From: a virus
Lineage: Duplodnaviria > Heunggongvirae > Uroviricota > Caudoviricetes
Length of the DNA: 52,942 nt
Direction: 5' to 3' (one strand)
Virus record (IMG/VR): IMGVR_UViG_2563366966_000001
Part shown: piece by piece, positions 1,285 to 44,106 of the stretch
Layout: each line of letters begins with the position of its first letter
Numbering within the stretch: the stretch's first letter is position 1
The notes under the pieces: model-generated
The model's database searches: none
The model's input: the letters and a program-made list of their open reading frames with translations, nothing else
What the model was told of the DNA's origin: nothing
Program-made: the position numbers and the translations under genes

Positions 1285-1888
1285 AATTCACAGGTGTTTT
1301 TTCCCATCCTGTGGTTTCCTTGGCGTTTTCTAGGTTTTTTCAGATAGTTGCATTTTTTTAAAAAGCATCCTAAGTTCGATCTCAGTGTCTATCTGGGGCC
1401 TATTTCTGTCCCATATATGCCCCAAAAAAACTCCCCAACAGATAAGTAGTTTTTTCATGGATTTATGCGTAAAATCAAGAACGGCTGGAAATCATTCAAT
1501 ACTCACACTATCGAAAAATTTACCAGCCAATCGCAGCACGTTCTTGCATAAGGCGTGTCTGCGGTTTTTCAACTATTCAGATACATCACTCCCATCACAT
1601 TCATTCCTCCGCATCAAAGGCATATAGGCTATATCACCTTGATATTTTTCTTTTTCAGATAAAAACTGTTATCTATGTATACTTTTAAACCCAATCCGTG
1701 TAGAGTCTCTGCATAAGATAGTTTGCAGTTGCCGCTTCAGCTTGCGCCATAAACCGCCTGATTTTTGCTGCCACCTGTTAGCATTCCTGTATACCTGAAA
1801 CGACAATGTTTATCTACGAACTTTAAGAACACCCAAGATAAAAATTGTCAACTATATCATATATAACACATTACTAATTCGAGGCTAT

Positions 1889-2002
1889 ATGAACAGCATA
1901 CTGATAATCACATCTCTCCTTATCATATTCAGCATTTTTAGTCATGCCCTAATAAAATTAGGGATTGGCATATCCAATAACCCAGACAAAACCGATGTAT
2001 AA
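1889..2002 (+). CDS. Candidate small hydrophobic protein (37 aa, one predicted TM helix)
   Basis: ATG at 1889 preceded by GAGG 5 nt upstream; translation [37 protein letters not shown]; not in ORF track because under 60 aa. Confidence 0.35.
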
Positions 2003-2070
2003 GTCAACATATCCTGAATCAGACATACAATATCGCAATGAAAATCAATAATATTTTAAGGAATATCTTC

Positions 2071-2304
2071 ATGAAATCAAAAGACACCCTAAAGTGGTTC
2101 CCTGCGCAGCTTCCTGAAGTAAGAATTATCCTAGGGGATGCTGTAGTGGAAGTAGCAAAACAGGGAAGACCTATCAATACCAGAACATTGCTTGATTACA
2201 TTGAAGGAAACATAAAGAAAAAATCATGGCTGGATAACAAAGAATTATTACAAACAGCGATATCAGTTCTTAAAGACAACCAAAATTTAAATGGTAAAAT
2301 GTAA
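2071..2304 (+). CDS. ydfK: Cold-shock-associated prophage protein YdfK
   Basis: ORF track 2038..2304; internal ATG at 2071 with AAGGA upstream gives the 77-aa form matching my memory of K-12 YdfK. Confidence 0.8.
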   Translation: MKSKDTLKWFPAQLPEVRIILGDAVVEVAKQGRPINTRTLLDYIEGNIKKKSWLDNKELLQTAISVLKDNQNLNGKM

Positions 2305-2469
2305 TATAATAAACTTACTTTTTTATCATTTTTCCACTTTAACAACATTTTGCTCCACTTTTCCACGACCAAACAACTTGAAATCTGGTTAAAATAACAC
2401 GCAACACTATTCTTCTTCCTTGAGTCCGCCCGGAACTCGAAAAACAAACCGAGTTAAAGCCATTTTTCA

Positions 2470-2483
2470 CAAAATCGATTTTG
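2470..2483. promoter_or_regulatory. Perfect 14-bp palindrome CAAAATCGATTTTG upstream of pin (candidate operator or recombinase site)
   Basis: Exact dyad symmetry read from sequence, about 140 bp upstream of the pin start codon. Confidence 0.3.
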
Positions 2484-2620
2484 GGTCTCACCAAAATTAC
2501 GGGGTTGCATACGCATTCGTTTATTTTCGAACGTGTACATACAAATATGCACAAAAATAATCATAATTATTTTCTGAGATGCATTATGATATGAACACCA
2601 ATTTCGTATAGAGTCTCACT

Positions 2621-3211
2621 ATGTCTCAAATTTTTGCTTACTGTCGGATATCAACGCTGGATCAGACCACCGAAAATCAACGCCGGGAAATCGAAAGTGC
2701 AGGTTTTAAAATCAAACCTCAGCAAATAATCGAAGAACACATTAGCGGCTCAGCAGCAACCAGTGAGCGTCCTGGTTTTAACCGGTTGCTTGCTCGCCTG
2801 AAATGTGGTGATCAATTGATTGTGACAAAACTGGATCGCCTTGGTTGTAATGCAATGGATATCAGGAAAACAGTGGAACAACTGACCGAAACAGGTATCA
2901 GAGTGCATTGCTTAGCATTGGGGGGCATTGACCTGACCAGTCCAACAGGAAAAATGATGATGCAAGTAATTTCAGCAGTCGCTGAATTTGAACGAGACCT
3001 TTTACTTGAACGCACTCATTCCGGGATAGTAAGAGCCCGCGGCGCAGGGAAACGTTTTGGTCGACCACCTGTGTTAAATGAAGAACAGAAACAGGCGGTA
3101 TTCGAACGAATTAAGTCAGGTGTAAGTATAAGTGCCATTGCCCGGGAATTCAAAACCTCGCGGCAAACCATTTTAAGAGCCAAAGCAAAACTTCAGACAC
3201 CTGACATATAA
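2621..3211 (+). CDS. pin: Serine recombinase, Pin/Gin/Hin-type DNA invertase
   Basis: 196-aa ORF; N-terminal resolvase catalytic motif (YCRISTLDQ) and C-terminal HTH; matches Pin-family invertases from memory. Confidence 0.9.
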
Positions 3212-3308
3212 AAAATAATCTCGGTGTGAGATGCTTTACGTCTTCCAAGCCCCCTTCCTTGCCGTAAATGGAAAGATACATCTAATTATAGAATTTATAT
3301 GTTTTACC

Positions 3309-3884
3309 CTACGGCAGTGCTGGCCATTCAATATCCTGTGCAGTTGACGTATCAACACGGTTCAGCAATACCCGATACTTTTTCCATGCTTCCAGCAACG
3401 AGATTTCTTCCTCCGTTGCAATTTCCAGATCTGCAGCATCCTGAAGCGGCGCAATATGCTCACTGGCTACCTGCATCAGGTTGTTTTTTGTTTCTTCCGC
3501 CTCCCGGATCCGGAACAGTTTTTCTGCTTCCGTATCCTTCACCCAGGCTGTGCCGTTCCACTTCTGAAACTCCCCTTCCGGCGATAACCAGGTAACATTT
3601 TCCGGTAACGGACCGAGTTCAGAAATAAATAACGCGTCGCCGGAAGCCACGTCATAAACCGTTTTACCCCGATGATCTTCAACGAGATGCCACGATGACT
3701 CATCACTGTTGAAAACAGCCACGAAGCCAGCCGGAATATCTGGCGGTGCAATATCGGTACTGTTTGCTGGCAGACCTGTATGAGGCGGAATATATGCATC
3801 ACCTTCACCAATAAATTCATTAGTTCCGGCCAGCAGATTATAAATTTTTATGGTCCGTGGTTGTTCACTCATTCTGAATGCCAT
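3309..3884 (-). CDS. tfa: Tail fiber assembly protein Tfa
   Basis: 191-aa ORF highly similar to lambda Tfa as recalled; immediately downstream of stf. Confidence 0.9.
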
Positions 3885-6800
3885 TATGCAAGCCTCACAA
3901 TATAGTTAAATGCGATGTTTTTGACGGTGTTTTCCGCGTTACCAGCAGCGTTAACGGTGATGGTGTGTCCATGTGAACCAATCGCAACGGAGTGCGTATG
4001 AGCACCAATACCGACAGTATGTGCATGTGCGCCTGCGCTTGCAGCAGTGCCGGACAGCGAGTGGGTATGAGCACCATCTGATGATGTCTTCCCTGCATTA
4101 CGAGTCTGGCCACTACCGCTTGTTGTGCTCATAATCCCCGCGCTTAGATTTGAAATCGCGGTATAACCATTAGGGAAAATGCTCGTGTTCGTGCCACCAA
4201 ATGCACCGGAACTCTTGTGTTGGTGCGCACCGGCACTATTTGCGGTCCCGCTAATACTATGGGTATGCGCCCCGGTGTTATTCGTGGATTTGGTTCCGTA
4301 ATCAAACGACGATGTGGTTTTCGTCCCCAAATCCGTACTGGATGCGCTGGCGCTGTGGGTGTGCGATTTAATGCCGTCCTGTTCCTGAGATAATACGGCC
4401 CGACCACTGGCGGGCTTGCCCTTAATCGTCCAGCCACGCATATCAGGGATCACGCCTGACGGATAAGCAACTGCAAGTTTCGGGTATGCAGATTTGTCAA
4501 AAGTCTGCCCCTGCATCAGGGCATAACCAGACGGAACGGTATCTGATGGCCACGGGATTGGTGCACCGACTGGATAAAACTCTGCAGGAGGATGAGCCGA
4601 GGTGTAAAGCTGCGCCCACGGCGACCAGTTTGCGTCGGTCGTATCCCGTCGTGAACGAATAAATGCCGGAGCATGAGCACCGCTTGTACCACTCCAGCCG
4701 ATGAGTAACTCACCTTCGCCAACGGCTGTCATCCCTTTCAGGTGAATGATATTTCCATACGCTGTTGGATATCCGTTGTTATACACCTCGTATAACTCAA
4801 GACCTGCTGCCCCCTGCGTATTGTCTGTCAGCGCGGTTACCCGACCTTTTGAAGCCAGATTAACTGATGATACTGCTGTTCCACCTGACGGTAACGCCCC
4901 GATCTCTGATGCCGTTGGCTTATTTCTGGAGTTATAGTCCCTTCGCCAGCCAGGTGAATAATCTGTTCCGTGATTAATATAGGTAAACTGGGCGTTAGTT
5001 GTTCCACCACCAGTGGAGGTGGTCGGTGTGGTAATGCGGATCGTCATCGCTGACTTTATCCCCATTACTTCAATGACAGCTCCGGCGAGATGAATATTAC
5101 CGCAGTCAGTATCAGTAATGATTTTATTATTGCCATAAGACCAGGAACCCTTGCACATCCAGTATGGATGGTTAAATGCTCCCTGAGAATCCAGCCACTC
5201 GATAAACTGTGCAGTCGTCCAGTTTCCTGTTGTTGTGCTTACTGACCCACCGAAGGCACGGCAGGCACCAATATTTTTCGTAAAGGTATCTTTGCCAGGG
5301 ATATCCGCACCGTTCTGATCTTTCTGCAGACGTTTCTCAGCATTGTCATTGGCTGCTTTTACTGCCTTTGGTGTCGCGGCAAGCGTTTCAGACGTGCTGT
5401 TGGTCGCGCTGCTTAGCTGGATTATCCCTTTCTGTGCTGTCGTTGCATCCTGTGCGGTGTATTTCCCGTTAGCCAGGTCATACGCGGCCTTAACGGCTTT
5501 TGGTGTTGCCGCCAGTGACTCGGAAGTGCTGTTAGTCGCACTACTGAGCTGTACTATCCCCTTTTTCGTCGTGCTCGCATCCTCAAGCGCCACGGCGGAT
5601 GCAATATCCTCTGCCCGTTTTGCTGCTGTCTCGGCGCGCGTTGCTGCGGATTCTGCCGTACTTTTGCTCTGAGCTGCCGCCGTCGCACTGCCAGCAGCCT
5701 CTGTCGCCTTCGTGGATGCCGTCGTGGCGCTGCTCTTCGCTGCTGACGCTTGTCTGGTCGCCTCATCTTTTGAAGCAGACGCCGATGATGCCGATGACGC
5801 CGCCGAACTGGCTGACGATGCGGCAGCCGTTTTTGAGGATTCTGCGCTGGTTTCCGACGCTTTCGCGTTCGTTTCGGATGTCTTCGCTGCGGAAGCAGAC
5901 CTCGCTGCTGCGCTGGCCTGTTCAGTGGCTTCGCCAGCCTTCGTTGTGGCTGTTGAAGCAGACGATGCGGCGCTTTCTGCCGATTTTCCGGCGGCGGTGG
6001 CACTGGCTGAGGCCTGCCCGGCACTTGTTGACGCTGCACTGGCAGACGACGCAGCCGCTGTTTTTGAGCCTGCCGCAGCCGAGGCGCTCTGTCCCGCTGC
6101 CGTTTCAGAAGACCTGGCGTTCGTCTCTGACGTTTTTGCCGCCTTCGCGGAATTTCCTGCCGCTGTTGCCGAGGAAGCTGCGCTACTGGCGCTCGAGGAT
6201 GCGTTCGTTTCTGATGATTTTGCCGCCTCTTTTGAAGCCGACGCATCCCGGGCTGAGGTGGCAGCTTCTGACGCTTTCGTGGTCGCGGTGGATGCAGAAG
6301 TGGCTGCTGATTGTTGTGACGCTGCAGCATTCGTTTCTGACGTTTTCGCGGCACTGGCACTGGTAGCTGCCGCGCTTTTTGAGGACTCTGCAGCGGCAGC
6401 ACTTTTTGATGCTTCAGTGGCCTTTGTTGATGCCGTTCCTGCGCTGGAAGACGCTGACTGAGCCGACGAAGCGGCCTGTCCGGCTGACGTGCTGGCTGCG
6501 CGTGCTGAGCCTGCAGCATCAGTCGCATGGGTTGCCGCCTCACGGGCAGATGTGCCGGCATCGCCGGCTGACTTCTTCGCGGCTGCCGTGTTCTGTGCCA
6601 CCGCGGACGCGTTACGCGCCACCTCTTCCACCATCAGTTCAAAACGGCGCAGAGCCTCCGGACGGGCATCATCCTCCGTCATGGCACCGAGAAAATCATT
6701 CAGCGTACCGGGTCGGGAATCTTCATACACGGTGATGGTCCCGGCATGTGACGGCGGGAATCCTTCCACCAACAGAATAACGCTGTACTGACCGTACTCA

Positions 6801-36493: not shown

Positions 36494-36520
36494 TAAAGAT
36501 TTTTTTGTGCATGCCGATAG
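36494..36520 (+). promoter_or_regulatory. Sigma-28 (FliA) promoter of flxA
   Basis: TAAAGATT-11 bp-GCCGATAG matches the sigma-28 consensus TAAAGTTT-N11-GCCGATAA; 24 nt upstream of the flxA ATG. Confidence 0.75.
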
Positions 36521-36543
36521 TGCTTTTTTAAAAGGAGAAATCT

Positions 36544-36876
36544 ATGTCTGTCACAATTCAGGGAAATACCTCAACCGTTATTTCAAACAACTCCGCCCCG
36601 GAAGGAACATCAGAAATAGCCAAAATCACAAGACAAATTCAGGTGCTGACTGAAAAGCTTGGGAAAATCTCATCGGAAGAGGGGATGACGACACAGCAGA
36701 AAAAAGAAATGGCTGCATTGGTACAGAAGCAAATTGAAAGCCTCTGGGCTCAACTGGAGCAGTTGTTAAGGCAGCAGGCAGAGAAAAAGAATGAAGACGC
36801 GACAGTTCAGCCTGATAAAAAAGAAGAGAAAAAAGACGATACAAATACCGCTGGCACCATTGATATTTACGTCTAA
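36544..36876 (+). CDS. flxA: FliA-regulated protein FlxA
   Basis: 110-aa ORF with AGGAGA RBS, matching FlxA. Confidence 0.85.
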   Translation: MSVTIQGNTSTVISNNSAPEGTSEIAKITRQIQVLTEKLGKISSEEGMTTQQKKEMAALVQKQIESLWAQLEQLLRQQAEKKNEDATVQPDKKEEKKDDTNTAGTIDIYV

Positions 36877-36890
36877 GTGACAGCCGTATT

Positions 36891-36914
36891 GTGGCCCTCA
36901 TCGGGCCACTTTTC
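36891..36914 (+). terminator. Rho-independent terminator of flxA
   Basis: Hairpin GTGGCCC-TCATC-GGGCCAC followed by TTTTCG. Confidence 0.65.
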
Positions 36915-36963
36915 GCCATCAGCCTTTTCTTTAAAGACATATTATCTTTGTATCATTTCTGAT

Positions 36964-38812
36964 AGTTAACATTACAAGATATAAGTAATGGACGCACTCC
37001 CAATTAGTCTATTTAAATCGCCACGAGTTTAACTGACAACCCATGATCAATTATGAATTGCAACTATTTCTGTAGTCACTTTTGTGGGGACAGTCCACAA
37101 AACTGCCAACTTCCGCTTCTTGCTCTTAGCGGACATTAGCATAGGCTATTTACCATAACGCCTCATTACGCGCACCGCCCAGACTGACTCAGCGCGTTTC
37201 TGGCATATCCCCGGTAAAACAAGTAACAAACCACCCGAAAATGAACACCAGAAACGCGACTTAAGAATCTACCCTATGAATGGATATGCACTCAACCGAA
37301 TCGATCTTGGTTTCAATCTTTTTTATCGGGATCAGGCTTCTTTTTAGGTAACTTCGGGGGCTTAACTTGCTGATGACTTTGCGTTCGGCGCGTAAGCCAG
37401 GGATGGTCAGCTTTAGGTTTAACATAGTATTTTGAGCGTAAATCAATACGGGCATTATCCACTCGTTCATGGACACTCTTTTCATCATCCAGTGGTATAG
37501 GCTCCGGGCCATCAACATACTTTTCCCAGCCCAGCGCTTTCCCGTCATACAGAACGTTAATTTCACCGTCAAAGTTCTCGCATACAGTAACAACCGAATG
37601 CCTAAGTCGATATCCCCGGCCCTCACTGCGTACCTGAAACGCACTGCTTTTGTACTGGAAAGTGAGATTTTTAGACAGAACGCGCTTCGCCTGTAGGCTG
37701 AAGATATAACCCAGTTCCTCTTCAGAATGGTGCACATCAAGATGAGCATTATCAGTAGTACGAGGCGACGTAGCGAACCGGTTGTTATAGGCTTCAATAA
37801 AGGTCGGCAACCATGCATTTGCTGTTTCAATATCACTGATATTCTGAAGCCGCATTTCTTTGACCAGCCTGTCCTGTAGTGTCTGATTGGCGCGCTCTAC
37901 CCGCCCTTTTGCCTGCGGGCTGTTGGCATGGATTGGCTCGATGCCCAGTGTCTTTATCGCACGAGTGAACTGGGTCAGCTCACCTTCCCGCTCTGGGTTA
38001 TTTACCCTGAATATACTGTGTCTATCAGAGTAGAGAGCGAGCGGTACGCCATGATCATTAAGGTAACCCCGGAGGGTTTCCATGTAAGCCCGGGTTGTTT
38101 CAGCAGGCACAAAACGCAACGCCATCAACGCACTGGTGGCATCATCAATGAAAACGATCAGTGTACATCTGGGGCCTCGATTTTCAAACCAGTCATGAGG
38201 TGAGCCATCAATCTGGATCAGTTCACCGTAAGATGGTCGTCGCATGCGGCGTTGATATATACGGGCAATTTTACGACGGCGTTCACGCCATAACCCCTCT
38301 TCTATCATCCACTTTCTGAGAGTTTCAACGGATAAAGATAAACCGTGTATCTCGCGCAATTTTTCGCACGCAAACGTAGGTCCAAAATCAGCGTAACGGC
38401 CTTTGAGGAGTGAAATTACTGTTGCTCTGAATTCAGTAGAAAAGGAATTATTAGGACGCTTTCCACGTCGGTGGGAAACCAGACCAGAAGGCCCTTCATT
38501 TCTATACCGTTGCACCAGACGTTTAACCTGCCGAATAGAAATGCCAATGCGTGCCGCAGCTTGTTCCTGAATAATCTGAAGTCGGTGGAGTTCCTTATGA
38601 CTCATCGTAACAGTCTCTTTGATCATGAAAAATCCCCCAGAGAATTGTCTGGGGACATTTTAGAATGGTTCAAAGGGGACATTACAGCTTGGTGTTAACA
38701 ATAGCCTGCTTCTCCGTGCCTTTCGGCACGTAAGAGGCTAACCTACATGTGTCTAGCATGAAATTGGCCTCAGATTAATGTTAAGCGTCTTGCAGGACGC
38801 GTAATGTTAACT
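36964..38812. mobile_element. Possible extent of the IS481-like element, bounded by a 12-bp perfect inverted repeat (AGTTAACATTAC / GTAATGTTAACT)
   Basis: Inverted repeat at 36964..36975 and 38801..38812 flanking the transposase ORF; no target duplication identified, so boundaries are tentative. Confidence 0.3.
37313..38626 (-). CDS. DDE transposase with N-terminal HTH (integrase-core type; IS481-family-like)
   Basis: 437-aa ORF; HTH-like N-terminus (RIGISIRQVKRLVQRY) and integrase-core signatures (D...D...E with GRVERANQTL); no IstB-like partner. Confidence 0.7.
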   Translation of the reverse strand: MIKETVTMSHKELHRLQIIQEQAAARIGISIRQVKRLVQRYRNEGPSGLVSHRRGKRPNNSFSTEFRATVISLLKGRYADFGPTFACEKLREIHGLSLSVETLRKWMIEEGLWRERRRKIARIYQRRMRRPSYGELIQIDGSPHDWFENRGPRCTLIVFIDDATSALMALRFVPAETTRAYMETLRGYLNDHGVPLALYSDRHSIFRVNNPEREGELTQFTRAIKTLGIEPIHANSPQAKGRVERANQTLQDRLVKEMRLQNISDIETANAWLPTFIEAYNNRFATSPRTTDNAHLDVHHSEEELGYIFSLQAKRVLSKNLTFQYKSSAFQVRSEGRGYRLRHSVVTVCENFDGEINVLYDGKALGWEKYVDGPEPIPLDDEKSVHERVDNARIDLRSKYYVKPKADHPWLTRRTQSHQQVKPPKLPKKKPDPDKKD

Positions 38813-38985
38813 GGGGCTTTTCTCTATCTGCCGTTGGTGTCCATGCCCGAGGCAGATAGCCTCAAGCACCCGCAGTCATTCTACTTAACTAAGATTTCCC
38901 CGCAAACCGTTTTTGTCCAGCACAGTAAATATCCAACTAAACCAATGGAGTTCGCTGTATTTACCGCCAGTATTCAATGCACATG

Positions 38986-39000
38986 ACCGCCATGAACACC
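38986..39000. repeat. 15-bp direct repeat ACCGCCATGAACACC, left flank of IS2-like element
   Basis: Identical 15-mer immediately outside both ends of the IS2-like element. Confidence 0.85.
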
Positions 39001-39091
39001 TGAGCTGGCCCCCTGAAATACCAGACAGTAGATGTATCTTAAAATAAGAGATAGGCTTGGATATATGTCTAACACTAGTTCTAATTTTGAG

Positions 39092-39460
39092 ATGGCTGGC
39101 GTTTTGTTAGGAAAAGAGGTGCGTAAACGTAAAACACCTCAGGAAAAAATCGCAATTATTCAACAGACTATGGAGCCGGGCATGACGGTGTCCCACGTGG
39201 CGCGTTTGCATGGAATTCAGCCCAGTCTGTTGTTTAAGTGGAAGAAACAATACCAGGAAGGAAGCCTCACTGCTGTGGCTGCCGGTGAAGACGTTGTTCC
39301 TGCTTCTGAACTGGCCGCTGCAATAAAGCAGATTAATCAGCTTCAGCGTTTACTGGGTAAGAAAACCATGGAAGTTGAGATCCTCAAAGAAGCGGTGGAG
39401 TATGCACAATCGCGAAAATGGATAGCGCATGTGCCCTTGTTACCTTCGGACAAGGAATAG
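39092..39460 (+). CDS. IS2-type OrfA (InsC-like, HTH)
   Basis: Similarity to IS2 InsC ([28 protein letters not shown]); ATG at 39092 chosen by alignment to InsC. Confidence 0.75.
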
Positions 39461-40299
39461 CCCCGGTAAGCCGTGTTCTGGGCGTGTCACGTGCGCAGTT
39501 AACATTACGGATGAAGGCATCTGATAACAAGCCAGATAAACGGCGTCAGAGGCGCGATGAGGCTGCGGATGCAGAAGTCTTATCGCGCATCCTTGATATC
39601 ATTGGCGATATGCCAGCATACGGGTATCGCCGTGTCTGGGCGATACTCAGGCGGCAGTCCCGAAATGAAGGACTACCGTTCGTGAATGCAAAGCGTGTTT
39701 ACCGGATAATGAGCGAAAATAGTCTGTTGTTGTTACATGACAAACCATCACGACGGCAGCGGGAACATAAAGGCCGAATATCGGTGAAGGAAAGCGACCA
39801 GCGTTGGTGTTCCGATGGCTTTGAGTTCGGTTGCGATGATGGCGAAAAACTGCGTGTTACGTTCGTCCTGGACTGTTGCGATCGTGAAGCCATAGACTGG
39901 GCCGCAAGCACGGGAGGTTACGATAAAGCGACAGTGCAGGATGTGATGTTAGGAGCGATAGAAAAACGCTTTGGCGATAAAGTACCGGAACAGTCCATCC
40001 AGTGGCTGACAGATAACGGTTCAGCGTACAGAGCGCATGAAACACGGCAGTTCGCCAGAGAGCTGAATCTGAAGCCCTGCACAACGGCAATCAGTAGCCC
40101 TCAGAGTAATGGAATGGCAGAACGGTTCGTGAAAACGATGAAGGAAGACTACATCGCGTTCATGCCGAAACCGAATGTAAGAACGGCATTGCATAACCTT
40201 GCAGTGGCGATCGAGCATTACAATGAAAACCATCCGCATAGTGCGTTGGGTTATCGCTCTCCGCGAGAATATCGACGTCAGCGGGTAATGTTAACTTAA
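39418..40299 (+). CDS. IS2-type OrfB (InsD-like DDE transposase catalytic domain)
   Basis: 293-aa ORF similar to IS2 InsD; likely expressed as an OrfAB fusion by frameshifting. Confidence 0.75.
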
Positions 40300-40530
40300 G
40301 ATACAACCCCTGTCTGGAAATAAGGGGGCAAGAACAACCGCCATGAACACCCCTAAAAAAAGGGCATTTATATATCCAAATATTAATATCAAAACATCAA
40401 CTTTTTCCATATACCTTGCTGTGAAGATGATGGGCATACATGATGCGAACAACCAGAACGCAACAAACAAAAACTGCAATGCGTTTTTCATTATTCCTCC
40501 TACAATCAATGTGCAATTACATTTAAACAC
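40291..40530 (-). CDS. Small hydrophobic protein whose 3-prime end is replaced by IS2-like sequence
   Basis: ORF of 79 aa; the last 14 codons lie inside the IS; removing the IS and one repeat copy restores a 72-aa ORF ending MCIEYWR. Confidence 0.4.
40337..40351. repeat. 15-bp direct repeat ACCGCCATGAACACC, right flank of IS2-like element
   Basis: Identical 15-mer immediately outside both ends of the IS2-like element. Confidence 0.85.
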
Positions 40531-40745
40531 ACCTCAATTTGGCCGGACATATAAATATCTAAACCAGAAAAAATCACTTACATAGCGTTACAAACTCTTT
40601 AGTCTAAAGGTTCATCGTAAAACATTCCCCATACTTATCAGTCCGTTCCGCGCCAGGTAGCTCATTGCCTTATCTGGCAACCTGTAATCAGGTTTCCGCT
40701 TTTTCAGTTGGCTGGTCGTTTAACCGACATAGTTAATCCATTAAT

Positions 40746-41033
40746 CTAGTTGCCGGATGTTGGTGGATTTTCGCGTTTTAGTTGTTCATAAAAGTGCACA
40801 GCTTTAACCAGTTCTTCTGATGTAACTGGGACTGGTGAGGCAGTGAATAAGGCCTGAATTTGATAGTTCGGCCTGTCGTTACAATCCTCTTTTTTCGGTA
40901 CATATTTCCAGTCACCAGACCACTACTTCCCCTGAAAGTCCGTAACGCCTTTTTTCACGTAGCGATATCGCCATGCCACTGGTTTTGCTTGCCCCGCCGT
41001 TTCATGCCCTTCCTGATAATTAATCTCGCTCAT
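40746..41033 (-). pseudogene. Decayed ORF with in-frame amber codon (36 codons, TAG at 40923..40925, then 58 more codons)
   Basis: Translation MSEINYQEGHETAGQAKPVAWRYRYVKKGVTDFQGK-stop-WSGDWKYVPKKEDCNDRPNYQIQALFTASPVPVTSEELVKAVHFYEQLKRENPPTSGN. Confidence 0.3.
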
Positions 41034-41165
41034 TCATCGCCCCACTCATCACAATATGCTTCGACCGGAGTTTTTCCCGCTTCATAGTCATCACGCTAGG
41101 ATTCGACATCAGCAGCACTTCCACCGCGTAACTCACCATAGTCCATTAATAGTTCATCCCGCTCT

Positions 41166-41173
41166 TCAAAACT
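41166..41173. repeat. Target site duplication TCAAAACT (left) of IS66-family element
   Basis: Identical 8-mer at 41166..41173 and 43629..43636 abutting the GTAAGCG termini. Confidence 0.85.
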
Positions 41174-41254
41174 GTAAGCGTCGTCTCAGCACCGTCTGGC
41201 AGATCCTGAAATTCCTGAGAGAATAGTGGACACCAAATATGGTGGACGCAATCC

Positions 41255-41659
41255 ATGAAATCATTAACCGCAGTGCGTAAAAAAAGCCCTAATTATCCCG
41301 TTGAGTTCAAAATCAAAATGGTTGAACTCTCGCATCGACCAGAGATCTCCGTAGCGCAACTCGCTCGTGAGCATGGGATCAACGATAATTTGCTGTTCAA
41401 GTGGCGCCAGTACTGGCGCGAAGGAAAACTACGTCCTCCTTCAACAACAGAAAACAACGTGCCTGAGCTGCTCCCGATAACACTTGATGCCGAAGATGTT
41501 GTCCCTACAACCTCCCCCCGGTCACAACCTGTAGCTGCTGCGACACCTGAATCACTCAATATCAGCTGTGAAGTGACGTTCCGGCACGGATCACTCCGTC
41601 TGAATGGTGCCATCAGCGAAAATATCCTGAACCTGCTGATACGGGAGCTCAAACGTTGA
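41255..41659 (+). CDS. IS66-family TnpA (OrfA)
   Basis: 134-aa ORF, first of the IS66 triplet. Confidence 0.85.
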   Translation: MKSLTAVRKKSPNYPVEFKIKMVELSHRPEISVAQLAREHGINDNLLFKWRQYWREGKLRPPSTTENNVPELLPITLDAEDVVPTTSPRSQPVAAATPESLNISCEVTFRHGSLRLNGAISENILNLLIRELKR

Positions 41660-42003
41660 TCCCATTACCATCAGGGACAAAGATCTGGCTGGTCGCTGGC
41701 ATCACCGATATGAGAAACGGCTTCAACGGCCTGGCGGCAAAGGTGCAGACGACGCTGAAAGACGATCCGATGTCAGGTCACGTTTTTATCTTCCGTGGGC
41801 GTAATGGCAGTCAGGTAAAGCTCCTCTGGTCTACCGGCGATGGACTGTGTCTGCTGACCAAACGGCTGGAGCGCGGCCGCTTCGCCTGGCCGTCAGCCCG
41901 GGATGGCAAAGTGTTCCTCACACCGGCACAGCTGGCGATGCTGCTGGAAGGTATCGACTGGCGGCAGCCTAAAAGACTGCTTACGTCCCTGACTATGTTG
42001 TAA
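41656..42003 (+). CDS. IS66-family TnpB (OrfB)
   Basis: 115-aa ORF overlapping tnpA stop. Confidence 0.85.
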   Translation: MIPLPSGTKIWLVAGITDMRNGFNGLAAKVQTTLKDDPMSGHVFIFRGRNGSQVKLLWSTGDGLCLLTKRLERGRFAWPSARDGKVFLTPAQLAMLLEGIDWRQPKRLLTSLTML

Positions 42004-42051
42004 GCCTCTTTATCCTGGTCGACGCTGAATGAGCCTGGTAATATACCCGGT

Positions 42052-43587
42052 ATGAGCAGCTCACTTCCTGACGATATCAATGCACTGAAACGTCTCCTTG
42101 CCGAACAGGAGGCGCTGAACCGTGCCCTGCAGGAAAAGCTGAACGAGCGTGAACGCGAAATAGACCATCTGCAGGCACAGCTGGATAAGCTGCGCCGGAT
42201 GAACTTCGGCAGCCGCTCGGAAAAAGTCTCCCGTCGTATCGCACAGATGGAAGCTGACCTGAAGGCACTTCAGAAAGAAAGTGATACCCTTACCGGTCGG
42301 GTTGACGACCCGGCCGTGCAGCGCCCGCTGCGTCAAACCCGCACCCGCAAACCGTTCCCCGAATCACTCCCCCGCGATGAAAAACGGCTGCTGCCGGCAG
42401 CGTCATGCTGCCCGGAATGTGGAGGCTCGCTGAGCTATCTGGGTGAGGATGCCGCCGAACAGCTGGAGCTGATGCGCAGCGCCTTCCGGGTTATCCGGAC
42501 TGTACGTGAAAAGCATGCCTGTACTCAGTGCGATGCCATCGTGCAGGCCCCCGCGCCTTCACGGCCCATCGAGCGGGGTATCGCAGGACCGGGGCTGCTG
42601 GCCCGCGTGCTGATCTCAAAGTATGCAGAGCACACCCCGCTGTACCGCCAGTCTGAAATGTACGGCCGCCAGGGCGTGGAGCTGAGTCGTTCACTGCTGT
42701 CGGGCTGGGTGGATGCATGCTGCCGGCTACTGTCACCGCTGGAAGAAGCGCTTCAGGACTATGTGCTGACTGACGGTAAGCTCCATGCTGATGACACGCC
42801 TGTCCCGGTGCTGTTGCCAGGCAATAAGAAAACGAAGACCGGGCGGTTATGGACCTACGTTCGTGACGACCGTAACGCCGGGTCAACGCTGGCGCCGGCG
42901 GTGTGGTTCGCTTACAGCCCGGACAGAAAAGGCATCCATCCGCAGACCCATCTTGCGGGGTTCAGTGGTGTACTGCAGGCGGATGCATACGCCGGGTTCA
43001 ACGAGCTGTACCGGGATGGCCGGATAACGGAAGCCGCCTGTTGGGCTCACGCCCGCCGTAAAATCCACGATGTGCACGTTCGCACCCCGTCAGCCCTGAC
43101 GGAGGAAGCGCTGAAACGGATCGGCGAACTGTACGCCATCGAGGCAGAGATAAGGGGAATGACGGCGGAGCAGCGCCTTGCCGAACGTCAGTTGAAAACG
43201 AAACCGCTGCTGAAATCCCTGGAAAGCTGGCTGCGTGAAAAGATGAAAACCCTGTCGCGACACTCAGAACTGGCGAAAGCGTTCGCATACGCCCTGAACC
43301 AGTGGCCGGCGCTGACGTACTATGCAGATGATGGCTGGGCTGAGGCGGACAATAACATCGCTGAAAATGCGTTGCGGATGGTCAGTCTGGGCCGCAAAAA
43401 CTACCTGTTCTTCGGTTCGGATCATGGAGGAGAGCGGGGAGCGCTGCTGTACAGCCTGATCGGGACGTGCAAACTGAACGGAGTGGAGCCAGAAAGCTAC
43501 CTCCGCTATGTCCTTGACGTCATAGCCGACTGGCCGATAAACCGGGTCGGCGAACTGCTCCCCCTGGCGCGTAGCACTGCCGACTGA
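42052..43587 (+). CDS. IS66-family transposase TnpC
   Basis: 511-aa ORF with N-terminal leucine zipper, CxxC zinc-binding motif and DDE domain typical of IS66 transposases. Confidence 0.9.
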
Positions 43588-43628
43588 ATAACACATCCCC
43601 GTCAATACGGTTCTTGCTGCACGCTTAC

Positions 43629-43636
43629 TCAAAACT
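43629..43636. repeat. Target site duplication TCAAAACT (right) of IS66-family element
   Basis: Identical 8-mer at 41166..41173 and 43629..43636 abutting the GTAAGCG termini. Confidence 0.85.
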
Positions 43637-44106
43637 GATGTTATATTTAGCTGAACAAAAATCAGCCACTTTGTTCTTCCTCATCGTCTTTTATTTCGTG
43701 GTATGAGTAATTGCAGTAGTTAAAGAAAATTTCTTATGCTCCGTCATGAATTTCCTCAGGTGTTGCGTCATCGTCCACTTCGAATACATCCTCAAAATCT
43801 CCACCAGCTATTCCCGTTTCAATAATAATTTTGAACTTTCGCATTTCACTACCGCCCTTTCGGGCGGCCTCCTGATGTTCTGAGGGTGCAGAAATCCATC
43901 CGGTTAAGGATTAAATTTTATTTACAGAACTGAATTTAATTATTCAGATATACGTATCTGTAGCCTTACGAATCTACTCACTGGATGCCTCTTTCATAAA
44001 AATAATCCAGTGGGTTTTATCGTTTTTTCCCTGTTCGTTGACAGATAACAGGTTTTCTGTCTGTCAGTGCCAGAATCTGGCTTACCGGTATTTGCGTTTC
44101 ATTCCA

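Follow-up and report, generated by a model that had tools for sequence, protein, structure and literature searches.

Elements of the IS66 family carry three ORFs, tnpA, tnpB, and tnpC, the last of which encodes a DDE transposase, and IS66 itself is reported to duplicate 8 bp of target DNA upon insertion (PMC6778807). One family member, ISEc22, is listed at a length of 2454 bp (PMC5001619 Table 2), and an 8-bp direct repeat has been described for it (PMC4048246). Beyond a single ISEc22 transposition-junction read in Klebsiella pneumoniae cultures (PMC5001619 Table 2), our search for published ISEc22 transposition experiments returned none. Here we describe a copy of this element in the window, by which we mean the whole 52,942-nucleotide stretch of viral DNA that was analyzed. 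The copy differs from the 2454-bp form in a homopolymer near the 3′ end of tnpC, where a run of five C (C5) stands in place of four (C4). PGAP labels this variant frameshifted and it has evidently kept transposing; a pseudogene flag on an IS transposase does not amount to immobility.

The element holds three consecutive plus-strand ORFs of 134, 115, and 511 codons, and the proposal that it belongs to the IS66 family, made earlier in a sequence-only reading of the window, was borne out by Pfam matches of all three (Table 1). The DNA is identical to that of copies in which tnpA is annotated as WP_000839179.1. The TTG start codon of tnpB shares bases with the tnpA stop codon (TTGA), and the same start is used in the PGAP annotation of this protein, WP_000612626.1. 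Overlap of tnpA and tnpB in IS66-family elements is said to suggest translational coupling. The match of TnpC to PF03050 spans profile positions 1–283 of 284, and the protein also matches zf-IS66, LZ_Tnp_IS66, and IS66_C. This tnpA-tnpB-tnpC architecture fits the IS66 family, and the window element shares with IS66 and IS679, which founded the family and have been studied by experiment, the three ORFs, the DDE transposase encoded by tnpC, and the 8-bp duplication; those are nevertheless different elements from different hosts, and the window tnpB is set apart by its TTG start within the TTGA overlap. A far closer relationship is found with ISEc22. All 2455 bp are 100% identical to many Escherichia coli copies that PGAP annotates as "IS66-like element ISEc22 family", and copies with at least 99% identity occur in 1073 records. 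We also compared the element with the 2454-bp copy of MINF_7C, which is flanked by the duplication CGCTGTTC and encodes a 512-aa transposase that PGAP calls intact. The two copies agree in gene order, termini, and the 8-bp length of the duplication, their TnpA and TnpB proteins fall under the same RefSeq accessions, and they differ at two places only, a SNP at 42518 and the extra C that brings the window copy to 2455 bp. Judged by the PGAP-named copies and by this copy of the published length, the element is ISEc22 at the isoform level, an ordinary copy of an element that is already catalogued.

Table 1. Features of the ISEc22 insertion and of the interrupted gene (positions in the window)
Feature	Position	Strand	Basis or remark
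3′ part of target gene	41030..41173	-	read-through homology
Left target-site duplication, TCAAAACT	41166..41173	.	single copy in uninterrupted genomes
ISEc22 (IS66 family), 2455-bp C5-run variant	41174..43628	+	100% identity to ISEc22-family copies
Left terminal inverted repeat, GTAAGCGTCGTCTCAGCACCGTCTGGCAG	41174..41202	+	comparison with right end
tnpA, 134 aa, helix-turn-helix accessory protein	41255..41659	+	PF01527 HTH_Tnp_1, E 9e-12
tnpB, 115 aa, IS66 Orf2-type accessory protein	41656..42003	+	PF05717 TnpB_IS66, E 2e-38
tnpC DDE transposase, 511-aa C5 frame	42052..43587	+	PF03050 DDE_Tnp_IS66, E 5e-107
C5 homopolymer (C4 in 2454-bp form)	43560..43564	+	+1 frameshift at codon 505
Right terminal inverted repeat, reverse complement GTAAGCGTGCAGCAAGAACCGTATTGACG	43600..43628	-	comparison with left end
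Right target-site duplication, TCAAAACT	43629..43636	.	match to left copy
5′ part of interrupted target ORF	43637..43684	-	restored ORF and ArgO145 gp14 homology

The boundaries of the element are defined by an exact repeat, as the sequence-only reading had said. The 8-mer TCAAAACT directly abuts both ends, so that the junctions read cgctct, TCAAAACT, GTAAGCGTCG on the left and GCACGCTTAC, TCAAAACT, gatgtt on the right, and these are its only two plus-strand occurrences in the window. An exact match of eight out of eight letters at two predefined boundaries is expected by chance with a frequency of about 1/65,536 (~1.5e-5). An 8-bp duplication, as is characteristic of the IS66 family, accompanies the ISEc22 C5 sequence here and at ten further sites. 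The 5′ end of the element reads GTAAGCGT and the 3′ end reads ACGCTTAC, such that both ends give GTAAGCGT when each is read from its own terminus. The inverted repeats are perfect over the terminal 8 bp and imperfect beyond, with 18 of the first 29 positions matched, and they begin with GTAAGCG, which is reportedly a feature of IS66-family termini. Counts of predicted promoters and terminators in the element and at its junctions were not above those of shuffled sequence. The intact duplication signifies that no IS-mediated rearrangement has taken place since the insertion, and it says nothing beyond that about age.

The empty site was rebuilt by deleting the element together with one copy of TCAAAACT, and the joined flanks (600 + 600 nt) were used as a query. 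This in silico removal, which had been proposed with the original observation, yielded a 1200-nt sequence that is uninterrupted and 100% identical in the top-listed complete E. coli genomes. At least 80% of the rebuilt site lies in one place in 373 complete E. coli genomes, including those of ATCC 8739, W, IAI39, and 042, and phage PhiR42_1, which comes from ECOR13, has the site at 99.9% identity. Finding the rebuilt site uninterrupted indicates that the insertion is real, simple, and unrearranged, in agreement with the earlier claim. The same reading had also taken the exact duplication as a sign of a probably recent event, and this part did not hold up. A 400-nt probe of the left junction, made of 200 nt of flank and 200 nt of the IS, is matched at 100% identity in 97 of 5,426 complete E. 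coli genomes, whose hosts and sources are humans, dogs, cattle, pigs, a turkey, and water on several continents. Strain 6409 was read directly at both junctions and across the C5 run. The genome AP027612.1 has the identical site and duplication with a 369-bp internal deletion that removes parts of tnpA and tnpB. A junction shared by 97 genomes, together with a deleted derivative, argues that the insertion is inherited and widespread as opposed to strain-specific. Most likely, there was one ancestral insertion, which at least 97 sequenced E. coli genomes have since received by inheritance or along with the spreading prophage. Dozens of RefSeq genomes already include this insertion with annotation, and it is not new. 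What an exact target duplication reveals about an insertion is that it has not been rearranged; recency cannot be read from it.

All three ORFs had been called intact in the sequence-only reading, a description that stands for tnpA and tnpB and fails for tnpC. The extra C replaces the terminal WRVALPTE with LARSTAD, changing the last 7–8 residues of TnpC, and gives a protein of 511 aa in place of the 512-aa transposase of the reference frame, which would have stopped at 43589–43591. All four Pfam domains are retained in the C5 protein, and we rejected an early truncation of tnpC because every domain is present and the shift is confined to the last 7–8 residues. What the frameshift does remove is the last position of the Pfam IS66 C-terminal element (PF13817), a conserved Trp. 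The C4 protein matches this profile over 39 of 39 positions with 61.4 bits, compared with 38 of 39 positions and 56.5 bits for the C5 protein, and the fuller match identifies C4 as the ancestral frame. Every 100%-identical copy that we inspected carries the PGAP label "frameshifted". Of the 2730 records matched by a 70-nt probe across the run, 371 give C5 as an exact best match; another 2355 score 95–99%, as expected with one base fewer, and all of these among the matches listed span 69 nt. In the protein collection, the 511-aa TnpC occurs on 876 contigs and the 512-aa TnpC on at least 1000. The C4 copies thus form the majority of ISEc22 and the C5 copies a minority sub-lineage.

This minority form is by no means confined to one location. 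The exact 2455-bp C5 sequence is present at 11 distinct sites, and at every one of them it is flanked by a separate perfect 8-bp duplication. In addition to the window site in the Qin prophage (TCAAAACT), copies adjoin a prophage invertase gene (CAACAAAT) and lie within cbrC (CATCATAC), between yahJ and yahK (GCATATTC), in a P2-like tail-fiber region (CTTTCGGA), and between cbtA and cbeA (GGTTATTC); the remaining duplications are TACAAATC (L007 and L009), AAACATCA (L016), CATTAAGC (L021), ATTCAATC (L022), and TGGTAAAC (L023). Single genomes can hold several C5 copies, with three in CP067399.1 and four in AP027612.1. Recurrent slippage from C4 to C5 at 11 sites is very unlikely, and it follows that the C5 lineage itself has transposed repeatedly. 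The C5 variant has therefore moved many times over, alone or with help in trans. The original suggestion that the element is probably active gains support from these 11 sites of the exact variant, albeit indirectly; the intact ORFs on which that suggestion was based do not supply it.

Several other explanations of the repeat and of the C run deserve consideration alongside this one. If the flanking 8-mer were a coincidence, or a product of recombination between IS copies, there would have been no simple insertion to account for. The AT-rich composition of TCAAAACT is all that speaks for such an origin, and it is refuted by the empty site, which is restored exactly with one 8-mer and matches hundreds of genomes at 100% over 1200 nt; recombination between IS copies would moreover leave unlike flanks, as seen at a plasmid-borne traG copy that lacks a duplication. 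We consider the probability of this origin to be vanishingly small. The extra C might instead be a sequencing error in an element that is really the 2454-bp ISEc22, since a run of C is a classic site for such errors. However, independent assemblies agree on C5 locus by locus: W5-6 and 1223 both have it in the copy between yahJ and yahK, M217 and 219 in the TACAAATC copy, and 6409 and XJW9B263 in the Qin copy. Along with the number of contigs that encode the 511-aa protein, this led us to reject the error, which we regard as extremely improbable.

With the run accepted as genuine, the question becomes what the frameshift means for TnpC. A dead relic, in which the +1 frameshift inactivates TnpC and leaves the element immobile, would be in keeping with the uniform PGAP label, the loss of the conserved terminal Trp of PF13817, and the greater abundance of the C4 form. 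Yet an immobile element should not appear at 11 sites with separate duplications, or at three to four sites in single genomes, unless C4 had slipped to C5 independently after each of 11 insertions, and the change in the protein is limited to 7–8 C-terminal residues, with all four Pfam domains kept. Such a relic is very improbable. Movement of the C5 variant in trans, by a 512-aa TnpC supplied from a co-resident C4 ISEc22 or close IS66 relative, is a more serious contender. The C4 form is widespread, given the 2355 of 2730 records without an exact C5 match, and the two forms do meet, as in EM03-18-08, where the Qin C5 copy is on the chromosome and a C4-type copy is on a plasmid. Set against this are the several genomes with three to four C5 copies and the fact that many transposases, those of IS66 perhaps among them, act preferentially in cis. 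On balance, we think help in trans rather unlikely, albeit a real possibility. We lean, with modest confidence, toward the C5 variant being an autonomously active sub-lineage despite its pseudogene label, and we infer that the 511-aa TnpC is catalytically competent. If the C5 variant is autonomous, then the terminal Trp and the last 8 residues would be dispensable, or slippage on the C5 run would restore them in some molecules. In that case, E. coli genomes would also contain more active IS elements than "pseudogene" calls on such copies suggest.

The surroundings of the insertion are those of a Qin-type lambdoid prophage, in which annotated genomes place the site among dicA, dicC, relBE, hokD, flxA, and ydfW. 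Along the minus strand, the site is preceded by dicC (cro-like), ydaT, an O-like replication gene, and genes for DUF977, a SAM methyltransferase, and DUF7167, and it is followed by an Ead/Ea22-like gene, an ISNCY transposase gene, ydfW, flxA, relBE, and hokD. The sequence-only reading had the element interrupting a small ORF. Joining the flanks does restore this minus-strand ORF exactly, as the 41-aa MRKNKVADFCSAKYNISFEERDELLMDYGELRGGSAADVES followed by a stop codon, but the ORF proves to be a fragment of a conserved phage gene of 58 codons. By itself it gave no significant match in Pfam or PHROGs (E 0.18–0.29), whereas a 63-residue translation read through the TAG stop matches phrog_519 with an E value of 2e-11, compared with 0.29 for the 41-aa ORF. 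In tblastn searches, residues 6–63 align across the stop position in many phages. The 41-aa ORF was accordingly rejected as a protein-family member in its own right. The TAG, at 41098–41096, is premature and occupies the position of Trp37 in homologues (TGG>TAG), and the original stop is the TGA at 41032–41030. The start also requires revision. The ATG chosen at first lies at 43684–43682, and homology instead supports a GTG at 43669–43667 that is preceded by AGGAAG.

The intact counterpart of this gene is gp14 of phage ArgO145 (YP_009907879.1), a 58-aa protein with the sequence MADFGSTKYSVSFEEWHELLMEYAELRGGSAADAEAWRDDYEAGKNPVEAYCDEWGDE and 79% identity to the window gene over 58 residues. Its N-terminal MADF aligns to VADF, in support of the GTG start. 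The two genes also have the same neighbors, a DUF7167 protein (60 aa in ArgO145) upstream and an Ead/Ea22-like gene downstream, with overlapping start and stop codons. The window gene departs from gp14 in having GTG for ATG, TAG for Trp37, and ISEc22 after codon 13. The 41-aa ORF is left unannotated in ATCC 8739 (by PGAP) and in PhiR42_1 (by its depositors). The rebuilt site is 100% identical to uninterrupted genomes, and so the nonsense mutation exists without the IS as well. Of the adjacent genes, the one for DUF7167 (43662–43844) is broken by an internal stop, and the Ead-like one (40612–41033) by a frameshift and stops. The target was therefore a phage gene of unknown function (phrog_519) that was already inactive before ISEc22 arrived, and its neighbors are pseudogenes. 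The element is oriented opposite to the phage operon. Given the decayed state of the gene, the insertion is most probably neutral and would confer no phenotype. Its consequence is slight in any case, with a catalogued element, a widely annotated insertion, and a gene that was dead when hit.

The origin that we propose for this locus is a conventional one. Ordinary DDE transposition would have brought in a full-length ISEc22, and the TCAAAACT duplication would stem from an 8-bp stagger between the two cuts. Within the early-right region of the Qin-type lambdoid prophage, the element would have entered at codons 12–14 of a small accessory gene that the Trp-to-TAG mutation had inactivated at an earlier time. 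The single ancestral insertion would then have been inherited or have spread with the prophage, and the copy would derive from an ISEc22 sub-lineage that is marked by one additional C shortly before tnpC ends and is still moving. Taken as a whole, we hold this account of a known element, a dead Qin gene, inheritance, and a C5 sub-lineage with high confidence.

A second insertion sequence, ISEc48 of the IS3 family, occupies 39001–40336, with 830 bp between it and the ISEc22 insertion site on its right. At this site, ISEc48 is absent from all 5,426 complete E. coli genomes. The window copy is flanked by a 15-bp duplication, as are the two other ISEc48 copies that were checked, and this length is unusually long for the IS3 family.

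Nearly all of the window, from about 2600 to 52942, is a single Qin-type lambdoid prophage, in which the head, tail and lysis module is complete and the integrase lies at the right end. After in-silico removal of ISEc22, an IS66-family element, together with one of its 8-bp repeats, the restored insertion site is 99.9% identical to the phage record PhiR42_1 (48.7 kb). Part of this prophage, window 36500-44000, is an IS hotspot. Other genomes carry IS1A/IS1B, IS3, IS903B, ISVsa5, ISSen4 or another IS66-family element within the same few kilobases of Qin, and the region in the window also holds an ISNCY-family transposase gene. ISEc22 and a second element, ISEc48, jointly add about 3.8 kb, which might bring the prophage genome near or beyond a lambda-like packaging limit.

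Members of the IS3 family usually duplicate 3-5 bp of target. The window copy of ISEc48 has the 15-bp direct repeat ACCGCCATGAACACC on both sides, and ATCC 8739 contains this repeat as a single copy. ISEc48 copies in strain 98206 and in Eco_23-2667 likewise have 15-bp duplications, GTACTCGATGAGGTG and CAGGACTACTGGAAC, respectively. ISEc48 is named in 4 papers, apparently just as a side remark, with a single occurrence per paper. At the Qin position of the window, ISEc48 was found in none of 5,426 complete E. coli genomes, which makes its insertion much younger or rarer than that of the adjoining ISEc22. The ISEc48 insertion could find use as a strain marker.

Features in and around the IS hotspot, with the plasmid copy of ISEc22
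Feature	Location	Strand	Remarks
ISNCY-family transposase ORF	window 37313-38626	-	open, 437 aa; NCBIfam ISNCY_2 model matched over nearly full length
ISEc48 (IS3 family)	window 39001-40336; with flanking repeats 38986-40351		1336 bp; 100% identity to copies annotated ISEc48
Ead/Ea22-like gene, decayed	window 40612-41033	-	stops and frameshifts
DUF7167 gene, decayed	window 43662-43844	-	internal stop at position of Lys37 in ArgO145 gp15
ISEc22, C5 variant (five-C run near 3' end of tnpC), in traG	plasmid p2_0.1 of strain 2/0 (L004), 1501-3955		identical to window copy

The counterpart of the ISNCY-family transposase gene is labeled 'incomplete' by PGAP in both ATCC 8739 and strain 6409. The alignment of the window with ATCC 8739 contains a single gap here, roughly 25 nt long. 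Decay in this part of the prophage extends beyond the target gene of ISEc22, itself a decayed homologue of phage ArgO145 gp14, as the genes on either side of it are both decayed too.

The plasmid copy of ISEc22 shows what a rearranged example of the element looks like, unlike the copy in the window. It has no target duplication at its two flanks, TGGCACTG versus GGTTGTAC, and it adjoins an IS5/IS1182 fragment.
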